64,000 bases of DNA from Bacteroidales bacterium (GTDB lineage: Bacteria > Bacteroidota > Bacteroidia > Bacteroidales > UBA12077), in assembly GCA_003446015.1 (NCBI GenBank), contig DMBU01000054.1, positions 1,121-65,120 on the forward strand, given 5' to 3'. Each line of letters opens with the position of its first letter. Within the stretch, counting starts at the first letter, position 1. Below the pieces are notes generated by a model. It had not been told where the DNA came from. It ran no database searches and saw only the letters and a program-made list of their open reading frames with translations. Made by a program: the position numbers and the translations under genes. Below, piece by piece: positions 24,398 through 42,062 of the stretch.

Positions 24398-24643
24398 ATG
24401 CTTTAAAGAATCTTATTTTAGTTTAGCATTATATAAAACAACTGATTAAATTTGTATAGTTTATAAGATTGTTAGCAGATTTGTGCAAAAAATATTTAGC
24501 GTTAACAGAACGTCTCAACATAGAAAACTGGTAATTTTCAAAACGTTATTTTCATTATCTTCTTTACATTGCAAAATTAAGTAAAATGCAATAATTAATA
24601 ATCAAGGTATTCCATTTTCAATCCGTTAAGCCACTTTTTTTGT

Positions 24644-24726
24644 CAGATTCAAGGTTCAGTCAAGACTGTTCCGTGTTGCGCCTGCGGCAGAACACTTGCC
24701 TTGGTCTTGACGGGTTCTTGAATCTG
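24644..24726 (+). repeat. nested-stem structured element, family B copy 1
   Basis: CAGATTCAAG (24644-53) pairs with CTTGAATCTG (24717-26). GTCAAGAC (24659-66) pairs with GTCTTGAC (24704-11). An inner GC-rich hairpin GTGTTGC..GCAGAACAC sits between them. The architecture is shared with 42063-42144. Confidence 0.5.
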
Positions 24727-24740
24727 GCGTACCTTTGCTT

Positions 24741-24883
24741 TAAGGATTGAAATAGGTGGATAGTGATGGGATAAGGTCTTTCATTTTTACTTGGAATTAG
24801 GAGAGACTCGGCATAAAAATGAAAGTCCTTACGGATAAAAAAAGACTCTTCCCAATAATTCAATGCAAAGCCGGATTATAGGG
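24741..24883 (+). repeat. hairpin repeat element, family A copy 1
   Basis: A TAAGGATTGAAA lead-in, then a 17-bp stem: AAGGTCTTTCATTTTTA (24773-89) with TAAAAATGAAAGTCCTT (24814-30). The loop contains AGGAGAG. A second hairpin is CCCAATAAT/ATTATAGGG (24851-83). Confidence 0.6.
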
Positions 24884-24971
24884 ATGTGGCTTTAGTGGGG
24901 TGGGTATTATCATTGCTTAAAAAAGTCCTAAAAAGGGGAAGCTTATAATAGATTATAGAATAAATCAGTAG

Positions 24972-25325
24972 TCAGATTAAAGGTTTGATGAAATAAGATT
25001 TGAGTTTAGTAATTCTTGTATCAATATCTCCTGTAATATCTCCGCCACAAACATTCTCTACTCCATAGTAATGAATTAATGTAAGAGTTGTTTTTGTTTC
25101 TATTCTCAATGCTTCATACCTACTTGTGGTAGCAAGTTGAATTTTTCGAATTTCAATAATTGGAAGATTTTCATTTACAAATTTCACTGAAGTTCCACTT
25201 CTATGCTTACGAAATCTTTTTTCCGGACTATTTGTTATTCCTACATAAAATTTGTCATTCTGAAGCACAAGAACATATAAGTAAATTCCACGCGCTACAT
25301 CATTTATTTTTAAATCTATATTCAT
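24972..25325 (-). CDS. GIY-YIG nuclease-domain protein
   Basis: GIYLYVLVLQNDKFYVGIT...RFRKHRSG matches the GIY...YVG...R...H pattern. The ATG at 25325 (MNIDLK) is preferred; the track start is 25349. Confidence 0.6.
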   Translation of the reverse strand: MNIDLKINDVARGIYLYVLVLQNDKFYVGITNSPEKRFRKHRSGTSVKFVNENLPIIEIRKIQLATTSRYEALRIETKTTLTLIHYYGVENVCGGDITGDIDTRITKLKSYFIKPLI

Positions 25326-25512
25326 AGCATTAGCTCCGACTTTATTCACCTGGCTCCGGTGTTTTAATTAATAATTCGGAACCACCAAAGAGAAAAATTT
25401 TGAATTCGAGCAATATAAATTCGTATAAATAGCAAAGCGGCTTTATGCCGAATTTATTTGTAGCCTGTGAAGTTGGCTTGTGCGCTCATTTCAAAAGGCT
25501 TTCTCTAACTTT

Positions 25513-25650
25513 GTAAGGAATTATTCGGTAAAAACGAGCCAAAAAAGAAAGGTCTTTTGTTTTTAATTGGCAAGAGGAGAGCATGTATGTAAAAATGAAA
25601 GTTCTTTGAACGCAGATAAAAGGCTTTTTTCAAAATATATTTTGGAATGT
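25513..25650 (+). repeat. hairpin repeat element, family A copy 2
   Basis: Stem AAGGTCTTTTGTTTTTA (25549-65) with TAAAAATGAAAGTTCTT (25590-606). The loop contains AGGAGAG. An AT palindrome lies downstream at 25631-44, and the element ends in GTGCCGG as copy 3 does. Confidence 0.6.
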
Positions 25651-25711
25651 GCCGGAACAGCTCGATATCCGTTCTTTTTAAAATTGGAATATAATTTCTT
25701 ATAGAGATCCA

Positions 25712-25888
25712 ATGTCAGGTATTGAGATAATTATTAAAATGCATGCAAATTTATATGTGTATGGACCAGTGTTTAATAATGGATTTAAACATTATGCAAT
25801 AAATATTATTGATATTTATTCATTAATATGTAAAATTCTTGAAATTACTCCTGAAGAAGTCGATGAAAAGATTGAGAACACTACTTAA
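25712..25888 (+). CDS. possible small ORF (58 aa), unknown function
   Basis: ATG...TAA open frame (MSGIEIIIKMHANLYVYGPVFNNGFKHYAINIID...) below the track cutoff. No other support. Confidence 0.2.
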   Translation: MSGIEIIIKMHANLYVYGPVFNNGFKHYAINIIDIYSLICKILEITPEEVDEKIENTT

Positions 25889-26389
25889 ATGTCAAAGAAT
25901 CAAAACGAAAATTGATTACAGTTTATAATACTGTATTTTGCAAAGACAAGAAAAACAGACACTTAACACCACAATTAAGCTTGTTAATATCTGGGTTAAT
26001 ATATTCTTACCTCTTTGTATATCTATTGTAATTTAACGGCCTTAGTGTTATTAACATTCCATGTGAAAATATAAAATCATTAAAATTTTTATATCTGAAA
26101 TTTTTTATCTATGGCGCTAAAGTCCTTTAATAGCTATTTTTACAGAGACTTAGTGTGCTTCGTTAATAACTATCACAAGATGTTGAAAAATACGATTAAA
26201 GACTCCTTGCACGAACTTGTTAGTATGTTTATCTTAGCACTTATTGGTTATTAAATGAAAAAGAGCCAATTAGATCCGGTCTAATTAACTCAATTTCATA
26301 ATTTCTGTTTTTGTTAGAAGCAAATCAAAAATAGGAATTCTTATCCAAAATACAAAAATAATTAGCCGGAATATTAAGGAGACTTGCCA

Positions 26390-26521
26390 ATGAAAGGCAG
26401 CACAAAGGAAGTGAGCCCGAAAGAGTATTTGGGTAAATTAAGAAAATTTGTGAAGGACTACGAAAGAGAAATCGTTATTTTATTAGCGATCTTGTCGATT
26501 GTATTTGGGTTTTTAGGTTGA
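26390..26521 (+). CDS. possible small tail-anchored membrane peptide (43 aa)
   Basis: MKGSTKEVSPKEYLGKLRKFVKDYEREIVILLAILSIVFGFLG. Preceded by TAAGGAGA and followed about 30 nt later by a strong terminator. Confidence 0.25.
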   Translation: MKGSTKEVSPKEYLGKLRKFVKDYEREIVILLAILSIVFGFLG

Positions 26522-26550
26522 TCCTAGTTTATCCAATTCTTACTAAAGAG

Positions 26551-26582
26551 AAAGAGCCTATTTAATTTGTAGGCTCTTTTTA
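26551..26582 (+). terminator. rho-independent terminator
   Basis: AAAGAGCCTA / TAGGCTCTTT hairpin followed by T residues. Confidence 0.7.
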
Positions 26583-26583
26583 A

Positions 26584-26616
26584 TTCTTTGTCCTGAATGC
26601 TCTGAAAATTCATTTT
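26584..26616. repeat. left arm of a ~33-bp imperfect inverted repeat (partner at 41966-41998)
   Basis: The TTCTTTGTCCTGAATGCTC core (19 nt, exact) is the reverse complement of 41980-41998. Similarity continues about 14 nt further inward, with 2-3 mismatches and one indel. Confidence 0.7.
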
Positions 26617-26727
26617 TTTTAGCAAATATAGCTCAATTTTAATAATATTTATCTCAAAATAAACAACATAAGAGATCTTACCAAGCATAGTAAGATTTCT
26701 TAGATTTTGTCATATTGCTAATTATTA

Positions 26728-26735
26728 TATATTTG
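26728..26735 (+). promoter_or_regulatory. candidate -7 promoter element (TAtaTTTG)
   Basis: TAnnTTTG match 21 nt upstream of the ATG at 26756. Confidence 0.3.
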
Positions 26736-26755
26736 TAACTCTCAAATGGTTACAA

Positions 26756-27172
26756 ATGGAAAATTTTCACTACACATTAATCGGTTATTTAAATTCAGCA
26801 AGGTTTCTTGCTTATGAATTAGAACAACCTACAATGGCTAAAGATTTGTTAAAATACGAAGTTATAGAACCTGAATTTTGCACCCTTAAAAAATTAAAAT
26901 TTATTGCAAAAAATGAAGGAATTGAACTAGAAAAAGTTTGGAGAGAAAATTATACAATCAGGAATAAAAGAATTAAGATTATTTATAATTATAATATTTC
27001 TGAACGCTTAAAAAATATTTTAAATCATCAAAAAATTGTCAGCATTGATGAGTTGTCAAACTACACACAGAAACAAGCATTAAATTTTAGAAATGCAGGA
27101 AAGAAATCAATCGAAGAGCTGGAGCAATTAATGTTTAAACATGGAGTTCAATTTAAAAACACAGATCAATAA
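26756..27172 (+). CDS. stand-alone protein with an RNA polymerase alpha C-terminal-domain-like (HhH) module
   Basis: The C-terminal ISERLKNILNHQKIVSIDELSNYTQKQALNFRNAGKKSIEELEQLMFKHGVQF follows the alpha-CTD pattern L-x-x-R-x-x-N-x-L...I-x-E-L...N-x-G-x-K-S-x-x-E-I...G. Confidence 0.55.
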   Translation: MENFHYTLIGYLNSARFLAYELEQPTMAKDLLKYEVIEPEFCTLKKLKFIAKNEGIELEKVWRENYTIRNKRIKIIYNYNISERLKNILNHQKIVSIDELSNYTQKQALNFRNAGKKSIEELEQLMFKHGVQFKNTDQ

Positions 27173-28044
27173 TTACTTTATCTATAGAATTTATGTTTAC
27201 CATGATTAAATTTGCAGCAACCTATTTGATTGAAATAAATTTGGTAGAAAAGCCAATTAATGAGCAAGTAATAAAATGGATGGATTAAAAAACCTAAAAC
27301 TCTTTTATAAAAAACTTAAAGCTTCAACATTAGTTGGGACTATTGTTGCTTTATAATAGTAACAGTAGCATCTTCTCTCCCTTTAATATTCAATATTAGT
27401 TCTGTTAGGTATTTGTGATATTAAAATTATATAGTAATTTTTAAATTCTAAATCTTTTAAGAAATATTTAGAAAATATCTTTGCTACAGCAAAGTTTCAG
27501 CCAAAAAGAAAAATAGATAACCAAGTAACTTGGCTTCCAAAACATCAAGATGTTTTTATTCGTTATCTGGATAGGGTTACAATTTGCCCTAGATATTTTA
27601 GGAGTTTAAGTAGAATTTGTTTTCTTAAATGAAAAGAAAATAAAAAGAGGAATATCAAAAAATATTTGAAGCTAAAGAAGTTCACTTTTGAGGGATAGAT
27701 AATGGCGTTTAGGAGAAGATATGATTTTTTTTTTGCTTTTTAAATTTTAAATAAGAAAAAAAGCGCAAATAATCCATAAATCAAAGGTATTAATTCTGTA
27801 AAAGACCAAAAAACAGAAATATATTCCAAATAAGAAGATGATTGTCGATTTTTAAAGAATTTTACTAGAAAGTATAAAAAATGATATAATTTTAATATTG
27901 AGAAATTATAAAAACTTGTTATTGACTATTTTCCTTTGAAGTACACTTCATTTCATTTAATCATGTATGTTTAAACTAAAAACATATATGAAAGATTCTT
28001 TTGTCAAAAACGAGTTAAACAAAAAATATTTTAATAATTATAAT

Positions 28045-30138
28045 ATGTACAGAATAAAAAATAATAATTTTAAAATCATTATTCTATGGTTAGTAATTGT
28101 GCTTAGCATTAATGCACAGGGCCAAATACCAGCCAATTACTATGATGGTACGGAAGGGTTAGAAGAAGAAGCTCTTAAAGCTGTACTTAATGATATAATC
28201 AAAGGACATACAGTATATACTTATACAAGTACACTTACTGATACATGGGATATTTTAAAAGAATCGGATGCAGACCCTACTAATTCATCAAATGTAATAT
28301 TAGTTTATTCAGGTAGGTCTGTAAATGGACCACAAGAGTATAATGATGGTGCGGGGTGGACAAGAGAACATGTGTGGCCAAATTCAAGGGGTGATTTTGG
28401 AACTGTTCAAGGACCAGGCACGGACTTACATAATTTAAAACCTTGTGATGTTTCAGTTAACTCAGCAAGAAGTAATAGGTGGTTTGATTATGCGGATGTA
28501 TATTATTATGATGATGGAGTAAATACAGGAAGTAAAACAAGTTATACAGATTTTGTTTGGGAACCAAGAGATGAAGTTAAGGGTGATGTGGCCCGAATAA
28601 TATTTTATATGGCAACAAGATATGAGGGAGAGGATGGAGAGATAGATTTAGAGGTTGTAGATTACTTTCCTGCAGATGATTCTTATGAACCATTAATGGC
28701 AATATTGAAGACTTTAAAGGAATGGAATGAGATGGACCCTGTGGATGATTTTGAACGTAATAGGAATAATGTAATTTATAGTTATCAAAATAATAGAAAT
28801 CCATTCATTGATCATCCTGAATTTGTGGAAAAAATTTGGGGACCAGTAATCAGCGAAAGTCAAGGTCTTTTTATTTCGGAGTATATTGAGGGGGATGGTT
28901 ATGATAAAGCCATTGAAATTTATAATAATTCGGAAAGCACAATAGACCTGTCCAATGTTAAATTACAGAAAGATAATGGAGGAGACCAATCATTTTCTTA
29001 TTCCTTGAGTTTGTCAGGAACAATTAATCCTCACGATGTATTTGTTATATCACATAATAGTGCAAGTGCAGAAATTAGAGCAAAAGCAAATTTAACAACT
29101 ACATCCTTGGTAATGACTTTTAACGGGGACGATCAATTGAGAATACTTTATAGTGGAATTGAAACTGATCATATCGGTGATGTTGGAAACTTTGGTGAAA
29201 ATAGAACATTTGTGAAAGCAGGACATGTTTTAAAAGGAGATACATCATTAGTAAACCCACAATTAAGCCTAAATTGGATTGAATTAGATAATGGAAATCA
29301 CAGTTGTTTGGGATATCATTATACTAACCAAACCTTAACAACTCCACAATTATTTATTTCAGAATATATTGAGGGGAGCTCATATAATAAAGGAATAGAA
29401 ATCTTTAATGCTTCAAGTGAAGTTATTGATTTAAGTAATGTAGCACTCCTAAAACAAACAAATGGTTTGGAGGGCTTCTCTGGTTTTTCATTATCAGGGG
29501 AGTTGAATCCTTACAGTGTATATTGTATTGTGCATCCTAGTGCAACAGCAGCATTATTGGAGAAGGCAGATTTACAAACTGTTGGAGGTGTTATGGATTT
29601 TAACGGAAATGACCCTGTCATGTTGGTTTATAAGGGGGTTGCGATTGATAAAATTGGTAACTCTGGTGGTGCAAATTTTGCTATTGACAAGGGATTGTTT
29701 CGAAATAGTAGTCAGGCTCTTCCTTCAAAAGAATGGAATGTTGCCGAATGGACTAATATTGCAATGGATAATTTTTCGTTCTTTGGTGATCACCAATATG
29801 ATTATCAACCTGCTCCTGACACTTTATATGCTATAGCTTCAGGCGATTGGACAGATCCTTCCATTTGGGCTTTAACTGAGAATGGTGTTAGAGCGAATAT
29901 TGTTCCAGCAGGAAATACAAATGTAGTAATTACTGGATATCAAATAATATTAAGCAGTGACAAAGAATGTGCTAGTGTTACGCTAAGTTCCAAAGCAGAT
30001 ATTATAACTAGTCTACTTGTAGATGGAGGGAACTTAAGTGTTTATGGAAAGGTAATTCTGGAAAAAACTAACTCAGTTGGCAAGGTAGAATTAGAGGTTA
30101 TAGGAAATGGAAGTTTGAGTTGTACCGAAATAGAATAA
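28045..30138 (+). CDS. secreted endonuclease I-family nuclease fused to two lamin-tail-domain (LTD) repeats
   Basis: Signal peptide from M27 (MYRIKNNNFKIIILWLVIVLSINAQG). REHVWPNSRG...DLHNLKP...N..RSN is endonuclease I-like. There are two LFISEYIEG..Y.K.IEI.N LTD-like repeats. Confidence 0.65.
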   Translation: MYRIKNNNFKIIILWLVIVLSINAQGQIPANYYDGTEGLEEEALKAVLNDIIKGHTVYTYTSTLTDTWDILKESDADPTNSSNVILVYSGRSVNGPQEYNDGAGWTREHVWPNSRGDFGTVQGPGTDLHNLKPCDVSVNSARSNRWFDYADVYYYDDGVNTGSKTSYTDFVWEPRDEVKGDVARIIFYMATRYEGEDGEIDLEVVDYFPADDSYEPLMAILKTLKEWNEMDPVDDFERNRNNVIYSYQNNRNPFIDHPEFVEKIWGPVISESQGLFISEYIEGDGYDKAIEIYNNSESTIDLSNVKLQKDNGGDQSFSYSLSLSGTINPHDVFVISHNSASAEIRAKANLTTTSLVMTFNGDDQLRILYSGIETDHIGDVGNFGENRTFVKAGHVLKGDTSLVNPQLSLNWIELDNGNHSCLGYHYTNQTLTTPQLFISEYIEGSSYNKGIEIFNASSEVIDLSNVALLKQTNGLEGFSGFSLSGELNPYSVYCIVHPSATAALLEKADLQTVGGVMDFNGNDPVMLVYKGVAIDKIGNSGGANFAIDKGLFRNSSQALPSKEWNVAEWTNIAMDNFSFFGDHQYDYQPAPDTLYAIASGDWTDPSIWALTENGVRANIVPAGNTNVVITGYQIILSSDKECASVTLSSKADIITSLLVDGGNLSVYGKVILEKTNSVGKVELEVIGNGSLSCTEIE

Positions 30139-30162
30139 AACATAAAACTTAAATTATTATAA

Positions 30163-33100
30163 ATGAAAAATAAATTATTCATAAGCATAATATTAATTTT
30201 TATAGCTTCTTTTATTAAAGCTCAGGAATTAAAATTACCGACAAATATACAAAGTCCTAATGCCGCGAGTTTAGGTAAATATGGTGATGTTCCGGTTTCA
30301 TATTTTACAGGGACTCCAAATATTAATATTCCATTACATAAATTAAGTGTTAAAGGAATTGATCTGGATATTTCACTGAGCTACGATGCTTCGGGAATTA
30401 GAATAAATAGTCACCCTGGCTGGGTAGGACAAAATTGGACTCTTAATGCTGGAGGAGTTATTACACGATCAGTTATTGGTCTGGCAGATGAAATTCAAAC
30501 AGTTTTCCCTTTTAGTGGAGGTTATTTTAACTTTTATGCTGATCTTAATGAAACGAATCTAAGTGATAACAATGAATTATTAAATTATGCTAATGATCAA
30601 ACAGCAAATGGTCGAGATTATCAACCTGATATATTTTTTTTCAATTTCATGGGAATTAGTGGTAAGTTTTTTCTTGATCAGGATCGTTATTGGAGGGTTG
30701 TTAGTGAGAGTAATATAAAAGTTTATATGGAACCTCAATTAATTGACCCTTTTATTGATAAGTTACCTGAAGATATTTTTGGAGGATTAGAATATCCAGG
30801 AGTAATTGCGGGGTTTGTACTTACTGATGATCAAGGAACTATATATAAGTTTGGTTATAATGAAAATGCTACAGAATATAGTATGCCTTTCTTTAAACAA
30901 ATATTTCCTAAACCTTCTTATTGGGTTGCCAATGCATGGTATTTAACAGAGGTAATTGACAAACATGGAAATGAAATTTATAATTTTAATTATGAAAGGG
31001 ATAATTTTACTGCTCAATTCTATAGAAATACTGGAAGTAAAAGATTTTCATTAGAAGATGATTGTAACTGGTGGGAACCTTCTTGTCTTCTTCCAGCGTG
31101 CAATTATACGGTTTCTTTGGATAAAAATACGGTTGATGGAAATTTAATATCTCCTATATATTTAACTGAAATTACAACATTCTTTAATGAGAGGATATAT
31201 TTTGGAAGAGATGAATCTTCTGAATTAAAGTATGACAATTTGGATTTTATTCATACTTATGATGAATTACTTCGTAATTCAGTGCCTGTAGGTCAAGATT
31301 ATTTAAGCATATATTATCTTCAACAAGAAAATCAATATAATGATGGTCCTAGAACGGAAGATTATTTAGAAAATCTAAAATGGTTTAAGTTGAATGAAAT
31401 TAAAATTCATAATAGTATACAGCAATTTGTAAAAAAAATAGAATTTAATTATAATAATAGCTCGAGCCAAAGATTGAATTTATCAAGCATAGATATATAT
31501 GGCAGTGATGGTAATTGGAATCCTGAAGCTGTAAAATATTCATATTCTTTTGGTTATGAGCAATTCGACTTGCTTCCAAAATATTTATCGAAGGAAGTTG
31601 ATCATTGGGGATTTTTCAATAATCATGAATATACAATAGATGAAAATGATCTTGGAAAGTTTTATAGTGAAAGAGAATCTGATTCATTTTACACTAAGGT
31701 AGGGCTGCTTAATTTCATCACATACCCTACAGGGGGGTATTCCAGTTTTAATTATGAACCAAATGAATTTGCACAAATTGTTTCGAATGATCGTAGTTAT
31801 CTTGAAACTGAATCGGGAAAAGGAGCGGGTGTTAGAATAAAAAAAATAGTTGATTTTGATGGTAAAAATGAAGTGATAAGGAGTTTTAAATATATTTTGA
31901 ATTATGAGAATAATAAATATTCCTCTTTAAGCAGTGGAATATTAACATGTAAACCCAAGTATTATTGGTCCAACTGGCATGTACATAAATGGGATGCAGG
32001 CTATTCTTCAGATTATTATGCTAGTACATTCTCAATTAATAGCATGATTCCTCTTTCTAATATTTTTGGTGTTTTTAATGGGTATTCAGAGGTTATTGAA
32101 GAACGTCAGGATGGAAGTTTTACATTATATAAGTATTCAAATTGGGATAATGACAATAACTTCTTTTTTGATGAACAGCCTATTAATACGTTAAATGCAG
32201 AGGCTTCTCGGTATCATCCATATAACGAATTGGGAATCTTAAGAGGTAAGTTGATTGAAGTAAAACAATTTGATAATAATTCAAACTTGGTTAAAAAAAG
32301 GGTCTTAAATTATAGAACAGATCATTCAGACATGAAAGCTAATAATTATGTTTTAGCGACAGATGTTAGATTTGAAAGACCATGTAATGATTATGATTAT
32401 AAATTGTATACTGGGAATGCTTATAAAATATATTATTTCGATTATGATATTGTAGAAGAGATCACATCTAATTATTTAGAAGAAGAGGAAATTTCTGAAA
32501 CTGTAAAATATACAAAAGAAGATATCGTCTTACCTGATAATAATGTTCGTTTAACAAAAAACATAATAAAAACCAATTCTGAAGGCAATGTAATTGCTTC
32601 AGTTTTTAGCTATCCGTTAGATTTGTCATCTGAATCATACATGCAAAACTTAATTGATAATAATAGAATTGGAGAAATTATACAAACTGAAACAACAAAA
32701 GAAGGTCAATCAATAGGTGCTAAAAAAACAACATATAAACAAGAAAACGGTCTTATTGTAGCGGCAACAGTAGAAACATCAAAGACAAATATAAGTGCTT
32801 TAGAAACTGAAGTTGAATATGATAAATATGATAGTGAGGGAAATTTATTGCAGTATCATGATAAAAGTAATATTAATACTTGCTTTATCTGGGGATATAA
32901 GAATCAATATCCAATTGCTAAAATTGAGAACGCTGAATATACAGAATTTGAGTCATTTATTTCATCAATCCAATCAACTTCAAATAGTGAAATAGGAAAT
33001 TGTTTTAATAGCGAAAGTTGTCCGGAGCAAACCCTTCGTTCACAATTAAACAATTTGAGAGACAATATCCCAAATGCAATGATTACAAGTTACACATATG

Positions 33101-33855: not shown

Positions 33856-33910
33856 CTTTATATACTTTTTGAAAGGATAACTTATATATTATACAATAGA
33901 TATAACAATT

Positions 33911-36900
33911 ATGAGAAGAATAAATTGGTTGCATACAATTACATTGTTATTAATAATTTTTATTAGTAATAAAACATATTCGCAAGATTTGCCAGATTTT
34001 ACAGTTGATATAACAACATTACCATTCGAAATTATAGAAGGGAGCACACCAACAATAACAATTAAAACAGAAAATATTGGAACTTCATATGCATCAGCAG
34101 GAGTTGTGAACTTTTATTTGTCAGAGAATAGTTCTTATGATGTGTCTGACACATATATTGGGAATCAATATTGTTATATTACTTTAGCGGCAGGAGAGTC
34201 TTACACATATGATGTCACACATGTCTCAATTCCTTCAGGCACATCACTGGGATTAAGGTATTTAATTGCATATATTGATGGAGGTCTTTCAGTTAATGAA
34301 TCAAATGAAAATAACAATACAGATTCACGTTTGTTTGAAGTAGTTGAAAATACATTATTACCAGAACTGTCATTAAGTATTTATAGTGCCAGTCCATCAA
34401 CTATAAATGTTGGAGAGAACACTACTCTTGTGTTTAATTTGTCAAATACTGGAGACGCAGATGCAGGTAGTAATACAACAGAATTCTACTTGTCGTCTAA
34501 TACTACATGTGAGAACTATATTGATGAATATTTAGGGTCTTATACTTATACTAGTATAAATGCAGGGGGAAATAGTACAACAGGAACAACTGTTACAATA
34601 CCCACTAATGTAGATGCAGGGACATGGTATATTGTAGCAAAAGTTGATGCAAATAATGAGGTTACTGAAAGTAATGAGGAAAATAATAATATCGCCTATA
34701 AGCAAGTAGAAATAACTGCAGATAGAGATTTGTTAGCTGAAATTATTAGCTTAAATCCATCATCCATTCTTCCTGGCGAAAGCACAAGTCTGAACTTTAT
34801 ATTATCTAATTTGGGTAGTGATAATGCAAGTTCTAGTACTATGAAATTTTACATTTCAAGTAACTCAACTTTTGAATCTGCAAGTGATATTTATTTAAGT
34901 TCGTACAACTGTTACGGTTTAACAGGAGGTGGTACTAGTACTGCAAATATTAACTTGACGATACCTGGAACTCTATATACGGGAACATGGTATATTTTGT
35001 GTATAGCCGATGCAATAAGTGAAATTACAGAGACCAACGAAAATAATAATATAGCAAGCCACGAAATCAGTATTTTACCAAAACCAGATTTATTTATTGT
35101 AAGTGCAAAAGCCAATCCAAGTTATATTTTTGATGGAGAAAGTACTTCTCTTACTTTTACTACAATTGGGTCACAAAATAATGCTGGCCCAAGTAGAACG
35201 AAGTTTTATTTATCTTCGAATACTACATACGACTCGGGAAGTGATATTTTATTAGGTTATTATGATCTTAGTAGTATTTATGCTGGCGATGTTATTATAT
35301 CAACAAAAAACCTCACAATACCATCAGGCACAGGAACAGGGATCACGTATATTTTATGTACAACTGATGCTAATAATGAAGTTGACGAAAGCTCGGAAAC
35401 TAATAACGTTTATAGTGTTCAGGTTAATATTAATCAGGTTCCTGCACCCACTATTTCTGCCGCACCGGATTGTTCGACAGGGTCAATTACCATCCATTCA
35501 GGTCTTTCAGGACAACAATCTTATGTATTATCAACAGGAACTTCTTGCAATACAGTAATAAATTCGTCATATGTAGATGCATCATCATATACTTTTACAA
35601 ATTTACCTACTGGAACATATACTGCATTCGTTGGGAAAAACGGCATTTATTCTAGTTGTTCTGAGCCAATTGAATTAAGCAATTATGAGAAGCCAACAGT
35701 TACGATAGAAAAAAATGATAATGATATTACGATAAGTTCCGATTTAACAATATTGCAAACTTTTTATTTGTCAGATGACAATTGTAATACATACATTGAC
35801 TCGCATACTGATGATGACCAGGCGTACACATTTTTAAATTTGCCTGATGGCACTTATTCTGCATACATTTTAAATGTATATAAAGGATGTATTTCTGAAT
35901 GTTCCAATAATGTTACAGTAGTAAATAAACCTGACTTATATATTACGGATCAAAGTGTAGATTCGAAATATATCAAAGCGGGAGAAAGTTGTTCTTTGAC
36001 TTTTACTTTGGGAAATGCTTCATCCTTAGGAACGGCAGGTGCAAGTACAACAAAGTTTTATTTATCTTTGGATACCCAGTTTGATTCTGATAATGATATT
36101 TTATTAGCTTACCACGATTTTGGCAGTTTGTTACCTCAAGAGACTTATACTATTACAAAAACTATTACACCTACAAGTTCAGATGATGGAGTTTATTACA
36201 TTTTAAGCATAGCTGATGCTGATAATGAAATAGAAGAAGGTCAAGAAACTAATAATTCTGCAAATACAGAAATTTATATTATTCAAGAATCTCCTGATCC
36301 AATAATTTCTACTCCTAATTCAGTTAAAACTGAAATTCCTTTAGTTCCTGCTGCATCAGATAATACATATGAACTTTCACAAACAGATATTCAATATTTT
36401 AATGGATTAGGACGTCCAATACAAAGTATTAATATTAAGCAAAGCCCTTCAGGTAAAGATATTGTACAAGATATTGAATATGATGAGTTAGGAAGACAAT
36501 ATAAATTGTATTTACCTTATGTAATTGAGGGAGCTGGAGAATATAAATATGATCCTAATTTAAATAATTTAACTAATTTTTATTTCGATCAACCCAATGT
36601 GGCTAAAACGATTTATCCTTATTCAGAAACCGTTTTTGATAATTCACCTTTAAATAGGGTTCAAGAACAGATTGCAGTTGGGAACGTTGGCGATATTATC
36701 CAGTACCAAGATTTCTCAGTTAATTTCAACTACGACGTATTTGTTTTTAATCCAGAAGGAGGTGGAGGCTCAGTTACAATAAGTATAGTAAATAATGTTT
36801 TAAATATAAGTTTTAGTTCAGGATTTGCAGAATCTCCTTTAAAAATAGGAAAAATAGTTGAGTTAACTACTTCTCCTAAATTGCCTGATATGATTTTGGG

Positions 36901-39900
36901 GTCGTTGGCTGATGGCCGTTATCAGGCTTATATTGACGACGGATATTTAGCAATACGAGGTGATTTTACTCCATTGGAGAATTTAACAGAGTCGCTAACT
37001 ATTCCTCTTGAAGGAAGAAGTAACCCAGTTAAATATAATTATTTGGTAAACTCCACCAATGAAGTAAGTTTATGGAAAGTGAATCAAGATAATAGCTGTG
37101 AGGTAAGCAATTATTATGAATCAAATAAACTTTTTAAATCGGAAACTATTGATGAAAATGAGAATTCTGTTTTTGAGTATGTTGATCTAACAGGAAAAAC
37201 AGTGCTTAAAAAGACTAATGATGGAGTTGTGGATTTGCTAACCTATTATGTATATGATATTTATGATCAGTTAAGATACGTATTCCCTCCATTAGCCGTT
37301 GAGAATTTAGGCTCAGAAACTGTTTTTGACACATCTCATGTTTTAGTTAAAAACCTATGCTATTACTATGAATATGATCATAGAAATCGTATGACCATAA
37401 AAAAACTGCCCGGAGCAGATCCTATCTATATGATTTACGATAATCGAGACCGATTAGTACTAACTCAGGATGGAAATTTACGTGATGAAAACAATTGGAT
37501 TTTTACCAAGTACGATGAATACAATCGCCCTGTACTGACAGGAATTTATTTCAATAATGTAAACACTGGACAAGCTAACATGCAAGCTTTTGTTAATTCT
37601 GAAATGTCTGTTTTTTATGAAGAAATACCTGATGGTTCTGATTATGAAGGAGACGATTTTGGATATACAAATTTATCTTTCCCAACATCGGATTTTGAGA
37701 TTTTAACTGTTGCTTATTACGATAATTATAATTTTGATATTAACGATGTAATCAGAAATTATTCAGAAACATATGATGATATTTATGATTATCCTGTTTC
37801 TAATATCAATTATGAAACAAAAGGACTCGTTACCGGAACATTAACAAAAGTTTTAGGTACAACCGATCATTACTTAATGTCCGTAAACTTTTACGATGAA
37901 AAAAATCGTATTTTAAGAACATATAACGAAAATTATCTTGGAGGGGATGATTTAATACTGAATAGTTACAATTTTATCGGTAATATCATAAAGACTAAAC
38001 AGGTTCATATTAAAGATGTAACTACATCCCCTATTGTAATAAATCAGCAATTTGACTATGATCATGCTTCTCGATTAGAAAAAGTACTCCATCAGATTGA
38101 AGGAAATGGAGATGCTCTTGTGATGGCGGAAATGGAATACAACGAGATTGGACAATTAATAAAAAAGAAACTTCATGAATCGGCACCAGATAATTTCTTA
38201 CAGGAAATAGATTTCACATATAATTCACGTGGTTGGCTGACAAAGATAAACGATACTGAAAATACAACAGATAATTTATTCGCAATGCAGCTAATTTATA
38301 ACGATTTTGTTGATGGTATAACTAGCACAAATGAAGCACAATATAATGGTAATATCTCAGCAATATTATGGAGAACTATACAAGATAAAAAAAATATAAG
38401 TATCGAAGATGAAACAGTAGATTCAGAAATAATCTCAAATTATATGATAACAGTTTCACCTGGTACTACTTTATTATCCGGAACGCATTTAGTTATAGAA
38501 CCTGGTGCTGTGGTTGAAGGAAATGCAGGTGTTACAGAAAAACAAGCATATGCTTTTAATTATGATGATGTTAATCGTCTTAAGAAAGGGGATTATAAAA
38601 TTGATATTGAAGGATGGACAAATCCAGACACCTATGACCTTGAAGCTGTTAATTATGATGCAAATGGGAATATCTCATTATTGAAACGTTTTGGAGATGA
38701 TGGATCATATTTAGACAATTTAGAATATGATTATTTGCATGAAGGTAATTTTACAAATCAGTTAAGAAATGTGACTGATATTGGTGATGTAGATAATGGT
38801 TTCTATGATCAAACAAACGCTGGAGTGGATGAAGAATATTTATACGATAATAATGGTAATCTTATAGTTGATGACAATAAAAGCTTTGATGTATATTATA
38901 ATTATTTGAACTTGCCCGAAGAAATCGATTTTGGAAATGGGGACAAAATTAAATATATTTACGATGCGAGTGGAGTTAAATTGGCTAAAGAAACTTATCA
39001 AAATAATGTTCTAAGCATGGACGTAGTGTATACCGGGAATATAATATATGAAGATCCAACTGGTTCCGATTTTACATTGTTAACTTCAGAAGGCAAAGTC
39101 TCAAAAACAAATTCTACATATAATTACGAATATTATCTAAAAGACCATTTGGGAAATACTAGGGTTATGTTCCATGATGATGGTAGTGGTAATGTTTTAG
39201 TTGATCAAGTAAACAGTTATTATCCTTTTGGAATGTTGTTCGAAAAACAGAATTTGGATAAAAATAAATACTTATATAATGGTAAAGAGTTACAAGAGGA
39301 TGTGTTTAATGGTGTAGCATTGGATTTGTATGATTACGGCATGAGAATGTATGACCCAAGCTTAGGTAGGTTTTTTACACAAGACAGGTTCTCTGAAAAA
39401 TATATAGACTTCTCTCCATATCAGTATGCTGCTAATAATCCAGCTCTTTTTATTGATGTTAATGGAGATAGTTTGTGGATAAATCATAAAGGAAATGATA
39501 TACTTTATGAAAATGGAAGTTTATATAATAAAGATGGTTCTGCGTATACAGGAAAAGGAGTAAAAACTAAAAAAGATGGAACTGTAAAATATACAGGGTT
39601 TTTAGGTAAGACTATGAGTGCTTTAGGAGCTATTAGTGGTGGAGCTGACGGTGCTTCTATGATTTCAGATTTACAATCATCAGATAATAATTTTGTAATT
39701 CAAAATGCAAGTAAAAGTGAATTTAAAGCAAATAATGCTTCAAAGGCATACGCAGGTCAAATACAATCTGATCCGAATTTATCTTCTGCATTAGCTTCTG
39801 GAGCTGACTTTTCTGGTGGCTCTGGTGGAACAATTTTTTGGAATTCATCAGGAACAATAGTACCTACATTAGCAGGAGGGGCTTCTAATGGAGCTATGGA

Positions 39901-40177
39901 TTTAGCTCATGAAATGTTCCATGGTTTAGATGCTAATAAGGGTTTATTAGATAATAGAATGCATCAAGGGATTAAGAGAAGTGAATGGAGTGCTGTTTAT
40001 CAAGAAAACAACTTACGCGGTCAACTGGGGCTTTCATTACGTACACATTATGTAAAAAATGTTGATCCGTCTGGTGTTTATATTGGTGGAAGTGGTGCTC
40101 GAATGATTACACCCGCTAATACACCTTATTTACCAATGTATCCTATGTCACCAAAACCAATACGAATAACTCCATAA
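33911..40177 (+). CDS. RHS/YD-repeat polymorphic toxin with N-terminal CARDB-like repeats and a C-terminal HExxH domain
   Basis: 2088-aa ORF with a signal peptide. It has several ~110-aa repeats ending ...ESNE.NN (CARDB-like) and a DIQYFNGLGRPIQS...YDELGRQ block. YD repeats follow, then the RHS core end YYPFGM...YLYNGKELQ...YDYGMRMYDPSLGRFFTQD...NPALFIDVNGD. A 235-aa tail follows, with LAHEMFHGL at 39908-39922. Confidence 0.85.
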   Translation: MRRINWLHTITLLLIIFISNKTYSQDLPDFTVDITTLPFEIIEGSTPTITIKTENIGTSYASAGVVNFYLSENSSYDVSDTYIGNQYCYITLAAGESYTYDVTHVSIPSGTSLGLRYLIAYIDGGLSVNESNENNNTDSRLFEVVENTLLPELSLSIYSASPSTINVGENTTLVFNLSNTGDADAGSNTTEFYLSSNTTCENYIDEYLGSYTYTSINAGGNSTTGTTVTIPTNVDAGTWYIVAKVDANNEVTESNEENNNIAYKQVEITADRDLLAEIISLNPSSILPGESTSLNFILSNLGSDNASSSTMKFYISSNSTFESASDIYLSSYNCYGLTGGGTSTANINLTIPGTLYTGTWYILCIADAISEITETNENNNIASHEISILPKPDLFIVSAKANPSYIFDGESTSLTFTTIGSQNNAGPSRTKFYLSSNTTYDSGSDILLGYYDLSSIYAGDVIISTKNLTIPSGTGTGITYILCTTDANNEVDESSETNNVYSVQVNINQVPAPTISAAPDCSTGSITIHSGLSGQQSYVLSTGTSCNTVINSSYVDASSYTFTNLPTGTYTAFVGKNGIYSSCSEPIELSNYEKPTVTIEKNDNDITISSDLTILQTFYLSDDNCNTYIDSHTDDDQAYTFLNLPDGTYSAYILNVYKGCISECSNNVTVVNKPDLYITDQSVDSKYIKAGESCSLTFTLGNASSLGTAGASTTKFYLSLDTQFDSDNDILLAYHDFGSLLPQETYTITKTITPTSSDDGVYYILSIADADNEIEEGQETNNSANTEIYIIQESPDPIISTPNSVKTEIPLVPAASDNTYELSQTDIQYFNGLGRPIQSINIKQSPSGKDIVQDIEYDELGRQYKLYLPYVIEGAGEYKYDPNLNNLTNFYFDQPNVAKTIYPYSETVFDNSPLNRVQEQIAVGNVGDIIQYQDFSVNFNYDVFVFNPEGGGGSVTISIVNNVLNISFSSGFAESPLKIGKIVELTTSPKLPDMILGSLADGRYQAYIDDGYLAIRGDFTPLENLTESLTIPLEGRSNPVKYNYLVNSTNEVSLWKVNQDNSCEVSNYYESNKLFKSETIDENENSVFEYVDLTGKTVLKKTNDGVVDLLTYYVYDIYDQLRYVFPPLAVENLGSETVFDTSHVLVKNLCYYYEYDHRNRMTIKKLPGADPIYMIYDNRDRLVLTQDGNLRDENNWIFTKYDEYNRPVLTGIYFNNVNTGQANMQAFVNSEMSVFYEEIPDGSDYEGDDFGYTNLSFPTSDFEILTVAYYDNYNFDINDVIRNYSETYDDIYDYPVSNINYETKGLVTGTLTKVLGTTDHYLMSVNFYDEKNRILRTYNENYLGGDDLILNSYNFIGNIIKTKQVHIKDVTTSPIVINQQFDYDHASRLEKVLHQIEGNGDALVMAEMEYNEIGQLIKKKLHESAPDNFLQEIDFTYNSRGWLTKINDTENTTDNLFAMQLIYNDFVDGITSTNEAQYNGNISAILWRTIQDKKNISIEDETVDSEIISNYMITVSPGTTLLSGTHLVIEPGAVVEGNAGVTEKQAYAFNYDDVNRLKKGDYKIDIEGWTNPDTYDLEAVNYDANGNISLLKRFGDDGSYLDNLEYDYLHEGNFTNQLRNVTDIGDVDNGFYDQTNAGVDEEYLYDNNGNLIVDDNKSFDVYYNYLNLPEEIDFGNGDKIKYIYDASGVKLAKETYQNNVLSMDVVYTGNIIYEDPTGSDFTLLTSEGKVSKTNSTYNYEYYLKDHLGNTRVMFHDDGSGNVLVDQVNSYYPFGMLFEKQNLDKNKYLYNGKELQEDVFNGVALDLYDYGMRMYDPSLGRFFTQDRFSEKYIDFSPYQYAANNPALFIDVNGDSLWINHKGNDILYENGSLYNKDGSAYTGKGVKTKKDGTVKYTGFLGKTMSALGAISGGADGASMISDLQSSDNNFVIQNASKSEFKANNASKAYAGQIQSDPNLSSALASGADFSGGSGGTIFWNSSGTIVPTLAGGASNGAMDLAHEMFHGLDANKGLLDNRMHQGIKRSEWSAVYQENNLRGQLGLSLRTHYVKNVDPSGVYIGGSGARMITPANTPYLPMYPMSPKPIRITP

Positions 40178-40180
40178 ACT

Positions 40181-40681
40181 ATGAAAAGATATTTAATTTA
40201 CTTAGGTATAATTATTTTTACAAGCTGTAATAGTGTTGCTCAAACTTTAGTAAAATATGATACGTATTCTAATAATCAATCTATAAAGGTAAAAATGAAG
40301 ATTCCTTCTGAATTTGATTTAAAAAGATATGAAGTAACAGTTGAAAAAGAGAATCAATATTTTTACATGGATTCTTCTATTATATATATATCAAATTTTA
40401 CTAATAACCCCAATTATTCAAATATTAAACAGCTCGGAGATAGTATTGCTAATTATAGATTTCAAGATGAAGAATTAACTAAGAGTATAAATGAACAAAT
40501 GAATAAAGAAGTTGTAAAACCGTTGCCCGATAGTCTGGTTCTTTTTGGTATTGATGAAAATAATCTATTTTGGAAAGATATAAAAATTGGGAAAATTAGT
40601 ATAGGTTACTTAAAAGTCTCAGAAGATAAAAAAGAATTGTTTGACAAGTCATTAAAAACAGTAAAAATTAAGCAACCTTAA
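40181..40681 (+). CDS. putative cognate immunity lipoprotein
   Basis: 166-aa ORF starting 3 nt after the toxin stop. Lipobox-like IIIFTSC. The position is canonical for RHS immunity genes. Confidence 0.55.
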   Translation: MKRYLIYLGIIIFTSCNSVAQTLVKYDTYSNNQSIKVKMKIPSEFDLKRYEVTVEKENQYFYMDSSIIYISNFTNNPNYSNIKQLGDSIANYRFQDEELTKSINEQMNKEVVKPLPDSLVLFGIDENNLFWKDIKIGKISIGYLKVSEDKKELFDKSLKTVKIKQP

Positions 40682-40720
40682 TACGGCGTAGAAGCAAAAA
40701 AAAGAAATAATATAATAAGT

Positions 40721-40753
40721 AAAAAGGTTCAAGTAAATGCTTGGACCTTTTTA
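40721..40753. terminator. bidirectional hairpin terminator
   Basis: AAAAAGGTTCAAG / CTTGGACCTTTTT with flanking A- and T-runs. Confidence 0.65.
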
Positions 40754-41020
40754 TTTGTATGCTTGACTTGCTTTAAAATCTCGAATATAAGCGGAAATAA
40801 CTTTTAGAATTGTTTTCTTTTCTTCTTCTGGTAATTTATAAAGTTCTTTTAATCTGTTTTTATATTTGATTAAAGGATTGAAAAGAACACTAAAGAAATA
40901 AGGTCTTTTGTTTTTAATAGGAAGAAGGAGAGATCTTGAGTAAAAATGAAAGTCCTTAGAGGTGAGAAACAGGCTCTTCTCGATTCTTCTTCGAGATGTG
41001 CCTGTTGTGTTTTGAGCTAA
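40751..41020 (-). pseudogene. start-less open frame ending in a regulator-like C-terminal tail; probably a truncated gene remnant
   Basis: The reverse frame is open for ~89 codons with no ATG/GTG/TTG. It ends ...NPLIKYKNRLKELYKLPEEEKKTILKVISAYIRDFKASQAYK*, which resembles tails of small Bacteroidota HTH regulators. The upstream half runs through family A copy 3. Confidence 0.3.
40871..40996 (+). repeat. hairpin repeat element, family A copy 3
   Basis: A TAAAGGATTGAAAA lead-in, then stem AAGGTCTTTTGTTTTTA (40900-16) with TAAAAATGAAAGTCCTT (40941-57). The loop contains AGGAGAG. A second hairpin is TCTCGA/TCGAGA (40978-96). Confidence 0.6.
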
Positions 41021-41159
41021 TTAATAATTTAAAGAATCCTACTTTCTTTTCACATCTTAAGATGGATAATTTTCTTATATACTGCAACATAAGATATCGT
41101 ATTAAGGTTAGTAAGAAATCTTATGTTGCATAGTCTTTTAAAACAAAGAGGATAGGTCA

Positions 41160-41672
41160 TTACCCTAAACTATTAAATTGATTTTGATAGTGTTTCACTA
41201 ATTTCTTATCAATTTTATAATTGGTTATACCAGGTTGCATTTCACTAATAAATTTTTCAAATAATAATTTTGCTTGTGTATTATTATTCGTTGGAATATC
41301 TTTTTTAATTTCAATATTACCTTTATCTAATTTATCTAATCTATCAAGAATTAATTGTAAATCATTTTTTATTGGTGCGCTTTTCCGTAAATATTCAACA
41401 AACGTATTTGTTACTTCATCTACTTGGTTAAGCATCGGAAGTAATTTAGTTTTCTCATGAGTTCGAATAAATGAAATAACTGTATCTTTCATTTTCTTTA
41501 CTTCTCCTGAAATTGATTGAATTTTATCTAAGGGATCTAAACCCGTTTCAGTAAAATAATTTAATGCTGATTCTATATAATCTTTTTCTGTTTTAAGATC
41601 ACTTACAGCTAATAATTTGCTTAAAATTTCTTTGTAATTTTCGCCTATGCGAATAGATTTATATTTACTCAT
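41160..41672 (-). CDS. hypothetical protein, possibly a ribbon-helix-helix relaxosome-accessory-like protein
   Basis: 170-aa ORF. The N-terminal KSIRIGENYKEILSKLL looks like a strand-helix RHH start and the rest is coiled-coil-like. Sits downstream of a palindrome-rich region. Confidence 0.4.
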   Translation of the reverse strand: MSKYKSIRIGENYKEILSKLLAVSDLKTEKDYIESALNYFTETGLDPLDKIQSISGEVKKMKDTVISFIRTHEKTKLLPMLNQVDEVTNTFVEYLRKSAPIKNDLQLILDRLDKLDKGNIEIKKDIPTNNNTQAKLLFEKFISEMQPGITNYKIDKKLVKHYQNQFNSLG

Positions 41673-41998: not shown

Positions 41999-42062
41999 AT
42001 CACAAACAGAATATTCTGAGTCCTTCACTCCTGATAAGCCACCATCCCCGAATTTACGGAGT

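Follow-up and report, generated by a model that had tools for sequence, protein, structure and literature searches.

Small RNAs are carried by conjugative and mobilizable elements, as exemplified by RteR of CTnDOT and FinP of F, and the Seg proteins of T4-like phages are known as free-standing GIY-YIG homing endonucleases. Promoters that work on single-stranded DNA (ssDNA), termed Frpo or ssi, have been described from the leading regions of plasmids (Masai & Arai 1997, as far as its description in PMC11541004 extends). Here, we analyze a 64-kb stretch of a Bacteroidales genome assembly (contig DMBU01000054.1, positions 1,121 to 65,120 of the forward strand; hereafter the window, numbered from its first letter), in which an original prediction, made from the letters alone, had listed three co-oriented copies of a hairpin element and had proposed a novel non-coding RNA (ncRNA) family, an attC-like cassette boundary or a miniature inverted-repeat transposable element (MITE).

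The element is a unit of ~300 nt whose carriers are integrative mobilizable elements (IMEs) of uncultured Bacteroidales. It comprises a 5′ domain and a 3′ hairpin module (hp module, with hairpins hp1 and hp2), and it is a new family of a familiar kind, namely a structured non-coding element on a mobile element that is absent from Rfam 15, with two unusual traits: a fixed place at the junction of backbone and cargo on three unrelated backbones, and its splitting by a resident GIY-YIG gene. What we show below is how the unit is built and how well it is conserved, its covariation and strand bias, its place in the genome and the lack of an Rfam family for it, whereas transcription, the terminator role and everything on the action of an RNA are what we infer from them. 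We see about an even chance that the hp module is an island-borne small RNA gene (promoter, hp1, purine-rich spacer and bidirectional terminator hp2), forming the 3′ module of a two-module non-coding unit.

The Three Hairpin Copies Belong to a Larger Unit

All three copies were found where the original prediction had placed them, each on the + strand. The 17-nt arms of hp1, AAGGTCTTTYRTTTTTA and TAAAAATGAAAGTYCTT, were recovered with 0 mismatches and occurred exactly 3 times each in the 64 kb, and dinucleotide shuffles of the window yielded zero exact matches to them. For the window copies, we likewise confirmed a T.T mismatch in position 5 of the stem and a loop of 24 nt with the AGGAGAG motif; the invariance claimed for AGGAGAG holds in these three copies but not in the family, in which the loops of L040, L041, L048, L006b, L052 and L053 differ (loci outside the window are designated by L numbers). 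As claimed, the second hairpins differ between the window copies yet each pairs with itself, with one A.A mismatch between CCCAATAAT and ATTATAGGG in copy 1. A covariance model (R1) whose seed consisted of 19 family members, the three window copies included, scored copies 1, 2 and 3 at 102, 88 and 127 bits (126.5 for copy 3), with E values of 1e-15 to 1e-23 that are partly circular, and four family copies outside the seed scored 71-90 bits, which provides independent support. As a second independent point, the R1 scan of the window revealed no fourth copy, and beyond the three copies it returned only their reverse-strand echoes at 23-30 bits.

The three hairpin copies thus exist as predicted, but none of them stands by itself: all three represent the 3′ module (hp1 plus hp2) of the ~300-nt unit. 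Conservation of copy 1 extends upstream to about 24613, and the aligned flanks of five copies, window copy 1 among them, share ~150 nt more upstream. An nhmmer profile of the long form, used to map all pieces of the unit, delimited complete units in the window (24589-24898), L013 (two), L017, L028 and L012, the last being cut by the locus end, and other loci hold pieces consisting of the 5′ domain only or of the hp module only.

The 5′ domain of the complete unit (24613-24755, + strand) is a 145-nt closed hairpin with 12 homologous copies and 84% mean column identity. Its outer stem P1 (24613-24624 / 24744-24755) pairs TTCAATCY with RGATTGAA, and for this reason the lead-in TAAGGAWT that had been noticed in front of hp1 is recognized as the 3′ strand of P1. 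It encloses a long imperfect stem P2 of 24 pairs (24642-24668 / 24702-24728) and an invariant apical hairpin (24673-24695) with the 21-mer core GTTGCGCCTGCGGCAGAACAC. A promoter-like motif lies inside the domain (24707-24737, + strand) and points into hp1; it consists of TTG at 24707-24709, a 20-nt spacer and TACCTTTG at 24730-24737. The invariant linker of all 5′ domains (window 24744-24753) ends in ATTGAAAT, which resembles the 8-nt 5′ handle of Bacteroidetes type I/III CRISPR (clustered regularly interspaced short palindromic repeat) RNAs, a resemblance that we take to be coincidence. A CRISPR-repeat mimic, considered on account of ATTGAAAT, was rejected, since the window holds no array and GGATTGAAAT occurs at chance frequency.

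Within the window, only copy 1 is a complete unit, copy 2 being a 3′ half and copy 3 retaining the promoter, hp1 and hp2 only; the lead-in is preceded by a TAnnTTTG box in all three. The hp1 of copy 1 (24773-24830, + strand; arms 24773-24789/24814-24830) has the 17-bp stem with its T.T mismatch and the 24-nt loop, and it is followed by an hp2 of the long subtype (24841-24893, + strand) with the outer stem AAAGAC/GGCTTT, the inner stem CCCAATAAT/ATTATAGGG, an A7 tract on the 5′ side and TTTAG on the 3′ side. Copy 2 (25506-25653, + strand) comprises the box TAACTTTG (25506-25513), the lead-in TAAGGAATT, hp1 (25549-25606; arms 25549-25565/25590-25606) and hp2 (~25620-25653), and is orthologous to positions 6819-6933 of L006. 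Copy 3 (40861-41006, + strand) comprises the box TATATTTG (40861-40868), the lead-in, hp1 (40900-40957; arms 40900-40916/40941-40957) and hp2 (40977-41006); it covers profile positions 156-320, with a degenerate 3′ arm of P2 kept and the 5′ arm and apical hairpin gone. The weak terminal inverted match between 25513 and 25694 that had been noted falls outside the conserved unit, which ends at ~25653, and its 8/10 matches in AT-rich DNA cannot be told from chance.

Distribution of the Family

The further homologues on which the ncRNA idea had been made to depend exist, totaling 23 hp modules (19 found at first, then 4) and about 15 5′ domains, all of them from Bacteroidales metagenome-assembled genomes (MAGs) or metagenome contigs. 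A scan of one genome per species, which requires an exact match to the 30-nt pattern GGAGAG-N6-10-TAAAAAYRAAAGNYCTT, found true homologues only in four Bacteroidales MAGs (L006, L012, L013 and L017; 7 copies), with 1-3 copies per MAG and always on a single contig; the other 12 matches were look-alikes formed by a ribosome-binding site and a start codon. The same pattern added three loci from JGI metagenomes (L028, L038 and L039). L049 turned out to be the same island as that of the window and therefore carries no information on polymorphism. The island of the window occurs in JGI sample 3300003138. Viral contigs contained no copy when searched with the stricter patterns or with the 5′-domain 21-mer, and plasmids and phages gave no BLAST matches; the pattern AGGAGAG..TAAAAATGAAAGT had two matches in viral contigs, which were discarded as a plain ribosome-binding site plus start codon in both cases.

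An Rfam 15 scan, a check that the original prediction had proposed, found no family for the element in the window, the only matches at the gathering score over the whole window being two tRNAs. At E<=10, the regions 24600-25800 and 40700-41200 gave sub-threshold microRNA, small RNA (sRNA) and small nucleolar RNA noise, the best at 25.7 bits against a gathering score of 60. In the literature on Bacteroides sRNA families and on the cargo of Bacteroidales IMEs, we found no match to the unit.

Conservation, Covariation and Strand Bias

The non-coding unit is more conserved than the GIY-YIG gene lodged in it: between loci, the 5′ domain is 80-91% and hp1 71-90% identical, with the GIY-YIG genes at 53-73% in nucleotides and 40-69% in amino acids. 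The exception is the pair formed by the window and L040, whose GIY-YIG genes are 92% identical in nucleotides and 88% in amino acids. Folding of the 12 aligned 5′ domains with RNAalifold gave 46 pairs, in which 95.7% of the cells are paired; double changes affect 6 pairs, and four G.U pairs are invariant. Shuffled alignments reached the observed value in at most 2 of 500 cases for four of five measures; for the fifth, the number of pairs with double changes, 28 of 500 did so. Slid controls dropped to 30-48% paired.

For the hp module, 93.3% of the cells are paired across 19 copies, and 29 cells with double changes were counted versus 12.4 in shuffles, none of 500 reaching the observed number. 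In hp2, five pairs switch type (AU7/CG6, CG10/UA6, CG9/UA4/AU1, GC9/AU8/UA1 and CG17/UA1), and the four copies found later bring further compensated hp2 stems. The stem sequence of hp1, by comparison, is constant in 23 copies save for wobble-compatible changes of the 5′ arm (CG9/UG9/UA1; AU15/GU4) and a few others: the top pair shows one AU to GC switch (L040), and uncompensated changes occur in four decaying or divergent copies (L012, L041, L042 and L006b). Additional conserved features are U.U mismatches, two in hp2 and one in hp1. Modules can also be mosaic, as in L017b, in which a type II hp1 loop is joined to a type III hp2. A pseudoknot between GGAGAG of the hp1 loop and the CTCTTC preceding hp2 was rejected, as six members lack GGAGAG and five of those keep CTCTT; with the hp1 loop variable outside the window, AGGAGAG is not a family invariant and the CTCTTC pseudoknot is unsupported.

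The strand asymmetry to which the original prediction had drawn attention was recovered, the one-sided CA to TG changes of the hp1 5′ arm giving U.G and G.U pairs on the + strand and C.A on the − strand. Over hp1 and hp2 together, 27 cells are G.U versus 5 that are C.A. With RNA parameters the + strand is the more stable for hp1 in 18 of 19 copies, for hp2 in 16 of 19 and for the 5′ domain in 12 of 12, with mean advantages of 5.4, 3.2 and 9.0 kcal/mol, respectively. With DNA parameters the bias nearly disappears in the hairpins (hp1 11/19, hp2 13/19) and persists in the 5′ domain (11/12). Of the two substrates that had been suggested, a + strand RNA or ssDNA, this dependence of the hairpin bias on RNA parameters favors a + strand RNA for the module, and the persistent bias is compatible with an ssDNA form of the 5′ domain.

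Promoter- and Terminator-Like Signals of a Putative Small RNA Gene

Promoters of Bacteroides and Flavobacterium follow a −7 consensus TAnnTTTG, preceded by TTG with a 19-21-nt spacer. The internal loop of the 5′ domain agrees with the −7 consensus column by column when the 12 copies are aligned: T, A, T, T and T are invariant, the final G is present in 11 of 12, and both "n" positions vary. A perfect TAnnTTTG lies within 110 nt upstream of 15 of the 19 modules versus 0.07 expected per 100 nt, and in 10 modules it stands at a fixed distance of 31-35 nt. Downstream, hp2 is flanked by a mean of 5.8 A in the 8 nt before it and 4.2 T in the 8 nt after it, against 2.9 and 2.7 predicted from base composition; these A/T-rich flanks, in combination with the convergent stop codons that abut the module at many loci (see below), suggest that hp2 is a bidirectional terminator.

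Taken as a small RNA gene, the hp module would be transcribed from the −7 box TAnnTTTG located 31-35 nt upstream of hp1, with the TAAGGAWT lead-in as the start region. The hp1 hairpin, in which the stem sequence itself and not just its pairing is held constant, could serve as a platform binding a partner; a short, purine-rich, presumably single-stranded spacer would separate it from hp2, whose long stem with two conserved U.U mismatches would stop this RNA as well as transcription from the convergent gene that closes the backbone, the stop codon of which is usually 10-30 nt away. The other module of the unit is the 5′ domain, a 145-nt closed hairpin bearing the promoter in its 3′ arm and internal loop. 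The proposal of a novel ncRNA family is supported by the lack of an Rfam 15 match, the compensatory changes, the + strand bias and the promoter box in front of most copies. Conservation on three unrelated backbones, at a level above that of adjacent protein genes, implies that the unit probably serves island maintenance, transfer or regulation.

Several observations weigh against this reading. Four modules have no perfect box (L006b, L017a, L017c and L041), and only copy 1 and L012 have a −33 TTG at the right spacing. The modules of L006b and L017c follow a co-oriented gene at 24 nt, so that there the module would be a 3′ untranslated region rather than a separate gene. Furthermore, P1 pairs across the proposed start site, which would demand either a longer transcript from upstream or an ssDNA form. 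A consensus terminator scan flagged hp2 in no copy on either strand, probably because two U.U mismatches interrupt the stem, and the + strand tail of hp2 is only weakly T-rich, copy 2 having no T-rich tail. True covariation is almost missing from hp1, and its structure must therefore be argued from conservation and wobble tolerance. Finally, the co-orientation of all copies in a locus is not accounted for by a small RNA gene alone.

A Fixed Place at the Backbone/Cargo Junction

All three copies reside on a genomic island (11544-45116) delimited by a direct repeat of a tRNA-Arg 3′ end and equipped with an integrase, a setting that goes beyond the original prediction, as do the larger unit and the origin of copy 2 described in the next section. 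The tRNA-Arg(TCG) lies at 45043-45116 on the − strand, and its 3′ end (45038-45064) is repeated 33.5 kb away at 11544-11570 with 96% identity. An att-site role for the unit was consequently discarded, the real att repeat being this tRNA-Arg 3′ end. The integrase (11734-12987), 12 kb from copy 1, has Arm-DNA-bind_5 and Phage_int_SAM_5 domains and is of the Bacteroidetes element type. Its 3′ end (12816-12978, ~160 nt) is repeated at 18178-18339 with 84-90% identity, which suggests that two elements accreted in tandem.

The backbone genes of the island (41160-45024, − strand) encode proteins of 289 aa, 70 aa (HTH_17), 332 aa, 188 aa (DUF6633) and 170 aa, and converge on copy 3. In L042 and L046, the same gene order (290 aa, HTH_17, ~377 aa, 97 aa, MobC) ends at an hp module, and L043-L045 have the HTH_17/MobC backbone and no hp module. 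The contigs with GIY-YIG homologues share a recurrent layout consisting of a mobilizable backbone, the hp module on the opposite strand, the GIY-YIG gene, the 5′ domain (again opposite) and defence cargo such as restriction-modification, McrBC, GmrSD and RelA_SpoT genes, among others. Three backbone types are visible, namely integrase-primase-NikA-relaxase-191 aa, 290 aa-HTH_17-377 aa-97 aa-MobC and Toprim-DUF5712-ParA-94 aa. The unit is always antisense to the mob and backbone genes, and the copies within one locus are all co-oriented, whatever the orientation of the neighboring genes.

At 10 loci, an opposing gene has its stop codon within 10-29 nt of the 3′ hp2 end (L006b, L028, L038, L040, L042, L046, L048, L052 and L053; for L017c, the homology of its downstream flank to that of L006b stands in for a direct distance). 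In seven of these (L006b, L038, L040, L042, L046, L052 and L053) the opposing gene ends a backbone row or partial backbone row, and in L028 and L048 it is an uncharacterised open reading frame (ORF). The module of L050 stands 80 nt beyond a DUF4384 gene, and window copy 3 stands 154 nt from its backbone gene. Copy 3 is the copy in the usual place at the backbone end, copy 1 an extra complete unit and copy 2 the 3′ half of a split unit. While cargo was being acquired, recombination or accretion between direct repeats most likely gave rise to the extra copies, and recombination between direct copies probably explains the cargo blocks flanked by copies.

Just upstream of the NikA-like gene, L040 (7838-7880) and L006 (2524-2570) contain the conserved inverted repeat GAGCCAGC..GTTTTGAC-TTC-GTCAAAAC..GCTGGCTC, which is likely the oriT of these mobilizable elements. 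The unit itself was dismissed as an oriT, as the typical inverted repeat upstream of nikA in these two loci is separate from it and the sequence after hp2 is not invariant in the way a nick site would be.

Among the cargo of the island are genes for trypsin-like and SIR2 proteins, a Mrr-NACHT protein of 1627 aa, endonuclease I and, at 33911-40681, a polymorphic toxin of the RHS type with the gene behind it. This toxin (2088 aa) has five CARDB repeats and DUF6443 and ends in a Peptidase_M91 effector domain. The gene behind it, which encodes 166 aa and gave no family match, probably specifies its immunity protein, and copy 3 follows this pair. On the 3′ side of copy 2, ~1.1 kb (25654-26755) contain no ORF longer than 58 aa, and the adjoining 26756-27172 encodes a 138-aa protein whose match to the RNA polymerase alpha subunit is confined to the C-terminal domain of the latter. 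Elsewhere, L013 (2650-2830) carries five direct repeats, GGAAATTATTT(C/T), at ~30-45 nt spacing between a truncated unit and a Fic-domain gene, which look like operator or iteron repeats. In L041, four rve-type insertion sequence (IS) copies unrelated to the unit (714-9133 and 13744-14793) surround the GIY-YIG/hairpin unit, and this region is a sink for insertions.

A GIY-YIG Gene Lodged within the Unit

Between a 5′ domain and the hp1 of copy 2, the window contains a 125-aa GIY-YIG nuclease gene (24972-25349, − strand; Pfam GIY-YIG, E 2.9e-7). In 8 further loci, GIY-YIG homologues are likewise situated between 5′ domain and hp module. Ahead of the same 749-aa NACHT gene, the unit is uninterrupted in L017 and split by the GIY-YIG gene in L006, which identifies the GIY-YIG gene as an insertion with presence/absence polymorphism. 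Copy 2 has the arrangement seen in L006, where the 5′ domain is intact, and it was created by the insertion of the GIY-YIG gene into a unit. The 5′ domain corresponding to copy 2 survives in the window as a collapsed remnant, gtcagattaaaggtt|tgatgaaataag (24971-24997, + strand), into which the final codons of the GIY-YIG gene extend; an identical collapse (gtcagattgaaatag) is found in L042, and L006, L038, L040, L041, L046 and L048 have an intact 5′ domain at this place.

With the insert come a terminator-like hairpin and a conserved upstream region of ~190 nt ending in TAACTTTG-TAAGGAATT, and because of this end the hp module would keep a promoter after the insertion. A free-standing GIY-YIG gene would thus have entered between the two modules, repeatedly or anciently. 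In the window, the ~190 nt upstream of the GIY-YIG start (25350-25535, − strand sense) are conserved at the DNA level in L006 and L040-L043, even in L043, which has no unit, and they contain a small hairpin, CGGCTTTATGCCG; this region may be a structured leader or the promoter region of the nuclease gene. The GIY-YIG gene is also found where no unit exists (L043-L045). The copies flanked by AAA_4 genes in L013, L017 and L039 were compared for insertion boundaries and showed no usable homology past the gene ends. The ensemble of 5′ domain, GIY-YIG gene and hp module could alternatively be an addiction module of nuclease and RNA or a homing module.

Alternative Explanations

That the unit acts as ssDNA on the transferred or displaced strand, with the 5′ domain as a hairpin promoter or priming site of the Frpo, ssi or sso kind adapted to the Bacteroidetes sigma factor, is the main rival reading, although we hold it to be unlikely. 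Its geometry would place the −33 box in a duplex stem and the −7 box in an unpaired bubble with P1 as the downstream duplex, and hp1 and hp2 would be further ssDNA hairpins (e.g., for primase or primosome entry), or hp2 would be the stop of the promoter once the DNA is double-stranded. In the usual oriT geometry, the strand antisense to the mob genes would be the transferred strand, and the unit is found only on mobilizable elements and always on that side; however, conservation around the oriT-like inverted repeat is higher toward the mob genes, which could mean that the opposite strand is transferred, and the unit stands near the end of the strand that would enter last and not in the leading region. 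The uniform orientation of all copies per locus, regardless of neighbors, and the primases encoded by type A and type C elements accord with such a role. The persistence of the 5′-domain strand bias with DNA parameters (11/12) does so too, whereas the bias of hp1 and hp2 is an effect of RNA parameters (11/19 and 13/19 with DNA parameters), and the tandem G.T mismatches in the AT-rich 17-bp stem of copies 2 and 3 would be weak as DNA. The leftward transcription to be expected is matched by the gene left of the 5′ domain in 7-8 of 12 cases, but the rule fails for copy 1, L013a, L013b and L038. A near-consensus promoter within a conserved, covarying hairpin also fits Frpo in the terms in which PMC11541004 describes it. 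The narrower proposal, that the ~300-nt unit is the Bacteroidota counterpart of Frpo/ssi, a pre-melted promoter on transferred ssDNA for the host RNA polymerase, we consider distinctly unlikely. If true, the unit would prime complementary-strand synthesis or give early cargo expression, with hp1/hp2 stopping the promoter in double-stranded DNA, and a conjugation-establishment mechanism of enterobacterial plasmids would extend to another phylum and promoter grammar; to our knowledge, no element of this sort has been described so far either from IMEs or with a promoter grammar other than that of sigma-70.

With no function as an RNA of its own, the module could be an insulator, that is, a bidirectional terminator with stabilizing hairpins between backbone operon and cargo, forming the 3′ end of the adjoining gene. 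The convergent stop codons 10-29 nt from hp2 at multiple loci, the modules of L017c and L006b placed 24 nt after a co-oriented gene and the freely varying hp2 stems with pairing kept are in keeping with this, as is the A-tract 5′ of hp2, which is stronger than the 3′ T-tract and thus would make termination best for the convergent gene. Nevertheless, terminators need no invariant 17-bp stem, no conserved U.U mismatches and no conserved upstream domain of 145 nt, the promoter box points into the module in 15 of 19 copies, and the terminator scanner reported nothing, so that we judge an insulator quite improbable. Very doubtful in our estimate is a recombination scaffold, in which exchange of cargo between direct copies of 130-300 bp, by attC-like or homologous recombination, would itself be the function. 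It would account for the 15-kb toxin block between window copies 2 and 3, for the 749-aa NACHT gene between two hp modules in L006 where L040 has a single module, for the alternation of units with single genes in L013, and for the mosaic modules (L017b) and the same unit on three unrelated backbones. The partial copies, however, have left ends at profile positions 156-210 and right ends at 194-258, a scatter over ~50-60 positions instead of a fixed crossover point; the unit is not bounded by R''/R' core sites, it has no integron-type integrase beside it, and the only tyrosine recombinase of the island is an ordinary Bacteroidetes element integrase, which speaks against the attC-like cassette boundary of the original prediction as well. 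Strand-biased wobble and conservation above that of coding neighbors would also be unexpected for a mere homology patch, and the repeats probably bring about homologous exchange without owing their existence to it. The MITE that had been suggested fares no better, and we regard a non-autonomous mobile element, whether a MITE or a palindrome-associated element of the IS200/IS605 style moving as ssDNA, as highly improbable. Subterminal imperfect hairpins at both ends, the lack of terminal inverted repeats, strand bias and co-orientation would suit the latter, and full units look like the joined ends of the 5′ domain-GIY-YIG-hp arrangement. Against this stand the 1-3 copies per genome on one contig per MAG in the exact-pattern scan, the absence of target-site duplications in the aligned flanks and of recognizable empty sites, and the fixed position at the backbone end on three element types. 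MITE-type ends are missing, as the left end ATCCTTAATTCAATC pairs with the internal linker and not with the right end, and among ~50 neighboring proteins (Pfam and precomputed annotations) none was a Y1/HUH, RAYT or DDE transposase, apart from the unrelated rve-type IS copies on the L041 contig. A small protein gene, finally, has a negligible probability. The reverse frame ..KDFHFY..LL.P.KN.RP.. is open through all three window copies, and GGAGAG lies 13 nt before the ATG in the hp1 3′ arm that opens a + strand mini-ORF, MKVL... Yet the reverse frame stops in or just after hp1 in L017a, L017b, L039, L046 and L048 and has no conserved start, as befits its rejection by the original prediction; the + strand ORF ends as MKVL-stop in copy 2 and L006a and as MKVLK-stop in L017a, with the frame changing between the other copies, and the substitutions keep pairing, not codons.

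Significance of the Small RNA Candidate and Its Setting

The unit is an uncatalogued and strongly selected structured non-coding element that marks where backbone and cargo meet in mobilizable islands of environmental Bacteroidales that carry defence genes; in their phylum, little of the biology of small RNAs and mobile elements has been charted. Such islands and their cargo boundaries can be sought in metagenomes with the covariance model or with the 21-mer GTTGCGCCTGCGGCAGAACAC as a handle. Additionally, the unit offers a clean natural case of a GIY-YIG gene lodged in a non-coding target.

Comparison with Known Systems

The predicted transcript of the unit resembles RteR and FinP in being short and structured, with its own promoter, a stem-loop and a terminator hairpin, and in its location beside transfer or backbone genes. 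In contrast to these, the unit is related to them neither in sequence nor through Rfam and has no antisense overlap with a target gene, and it consists of two modules present in several co-oriented copies.

Integron attC sites share with the unit the arrangement of structured, strand-biased repeats in one orientation between single-gene cargo, with a central stem that varies while pairing is kept. The unit differs in having neither a fixed recombination point nor the R''/L''/L'/R' layout nor an IntI-type integrase beside the array; by eye, no attC core boxes (RYYYAAC...GTTRRRY) were found at the unit ends, and a GTTAAGC inside the 5′ domain has no inverse partner. Its invariant 17-bp stem and 60-nt invariant apical region are, moreover, far above what attC conservation needs.

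The likeness to Frpo/ssi was drawn from the description given in PMC11541004; within that scope, it lies in a hairpin of a few hundred nt with promoter boxes in the stem, and in several co-oriented copies on one strand of a transferable element among defence-related cargo. It concerns the 5′ domain, which has TTG in stem P2 and TAnnTTTG in the internal loop, and not hp1 and hp2, whose stems contain no such boxes. The boxes of the unit are also of the Bacteroidetes type rather than sigma-70, it stands beside the mob genes and not in a proven leading region, and its flanking genes are inconsistently oriented.

As for the Seg proteins, the likeness concerns the GIY-YIG insert, whose cleavage activity is putative, and not the hairpin element, and the GIY-YIG gene differs in occurring also apart from the unit (L043-L045). 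The insert is, like the Seg genes, a small self-contained gene at one fixed site in highly conserved sequence, polymorphic in presence and absence between L017 and L006, and it evolves much faster than its target.

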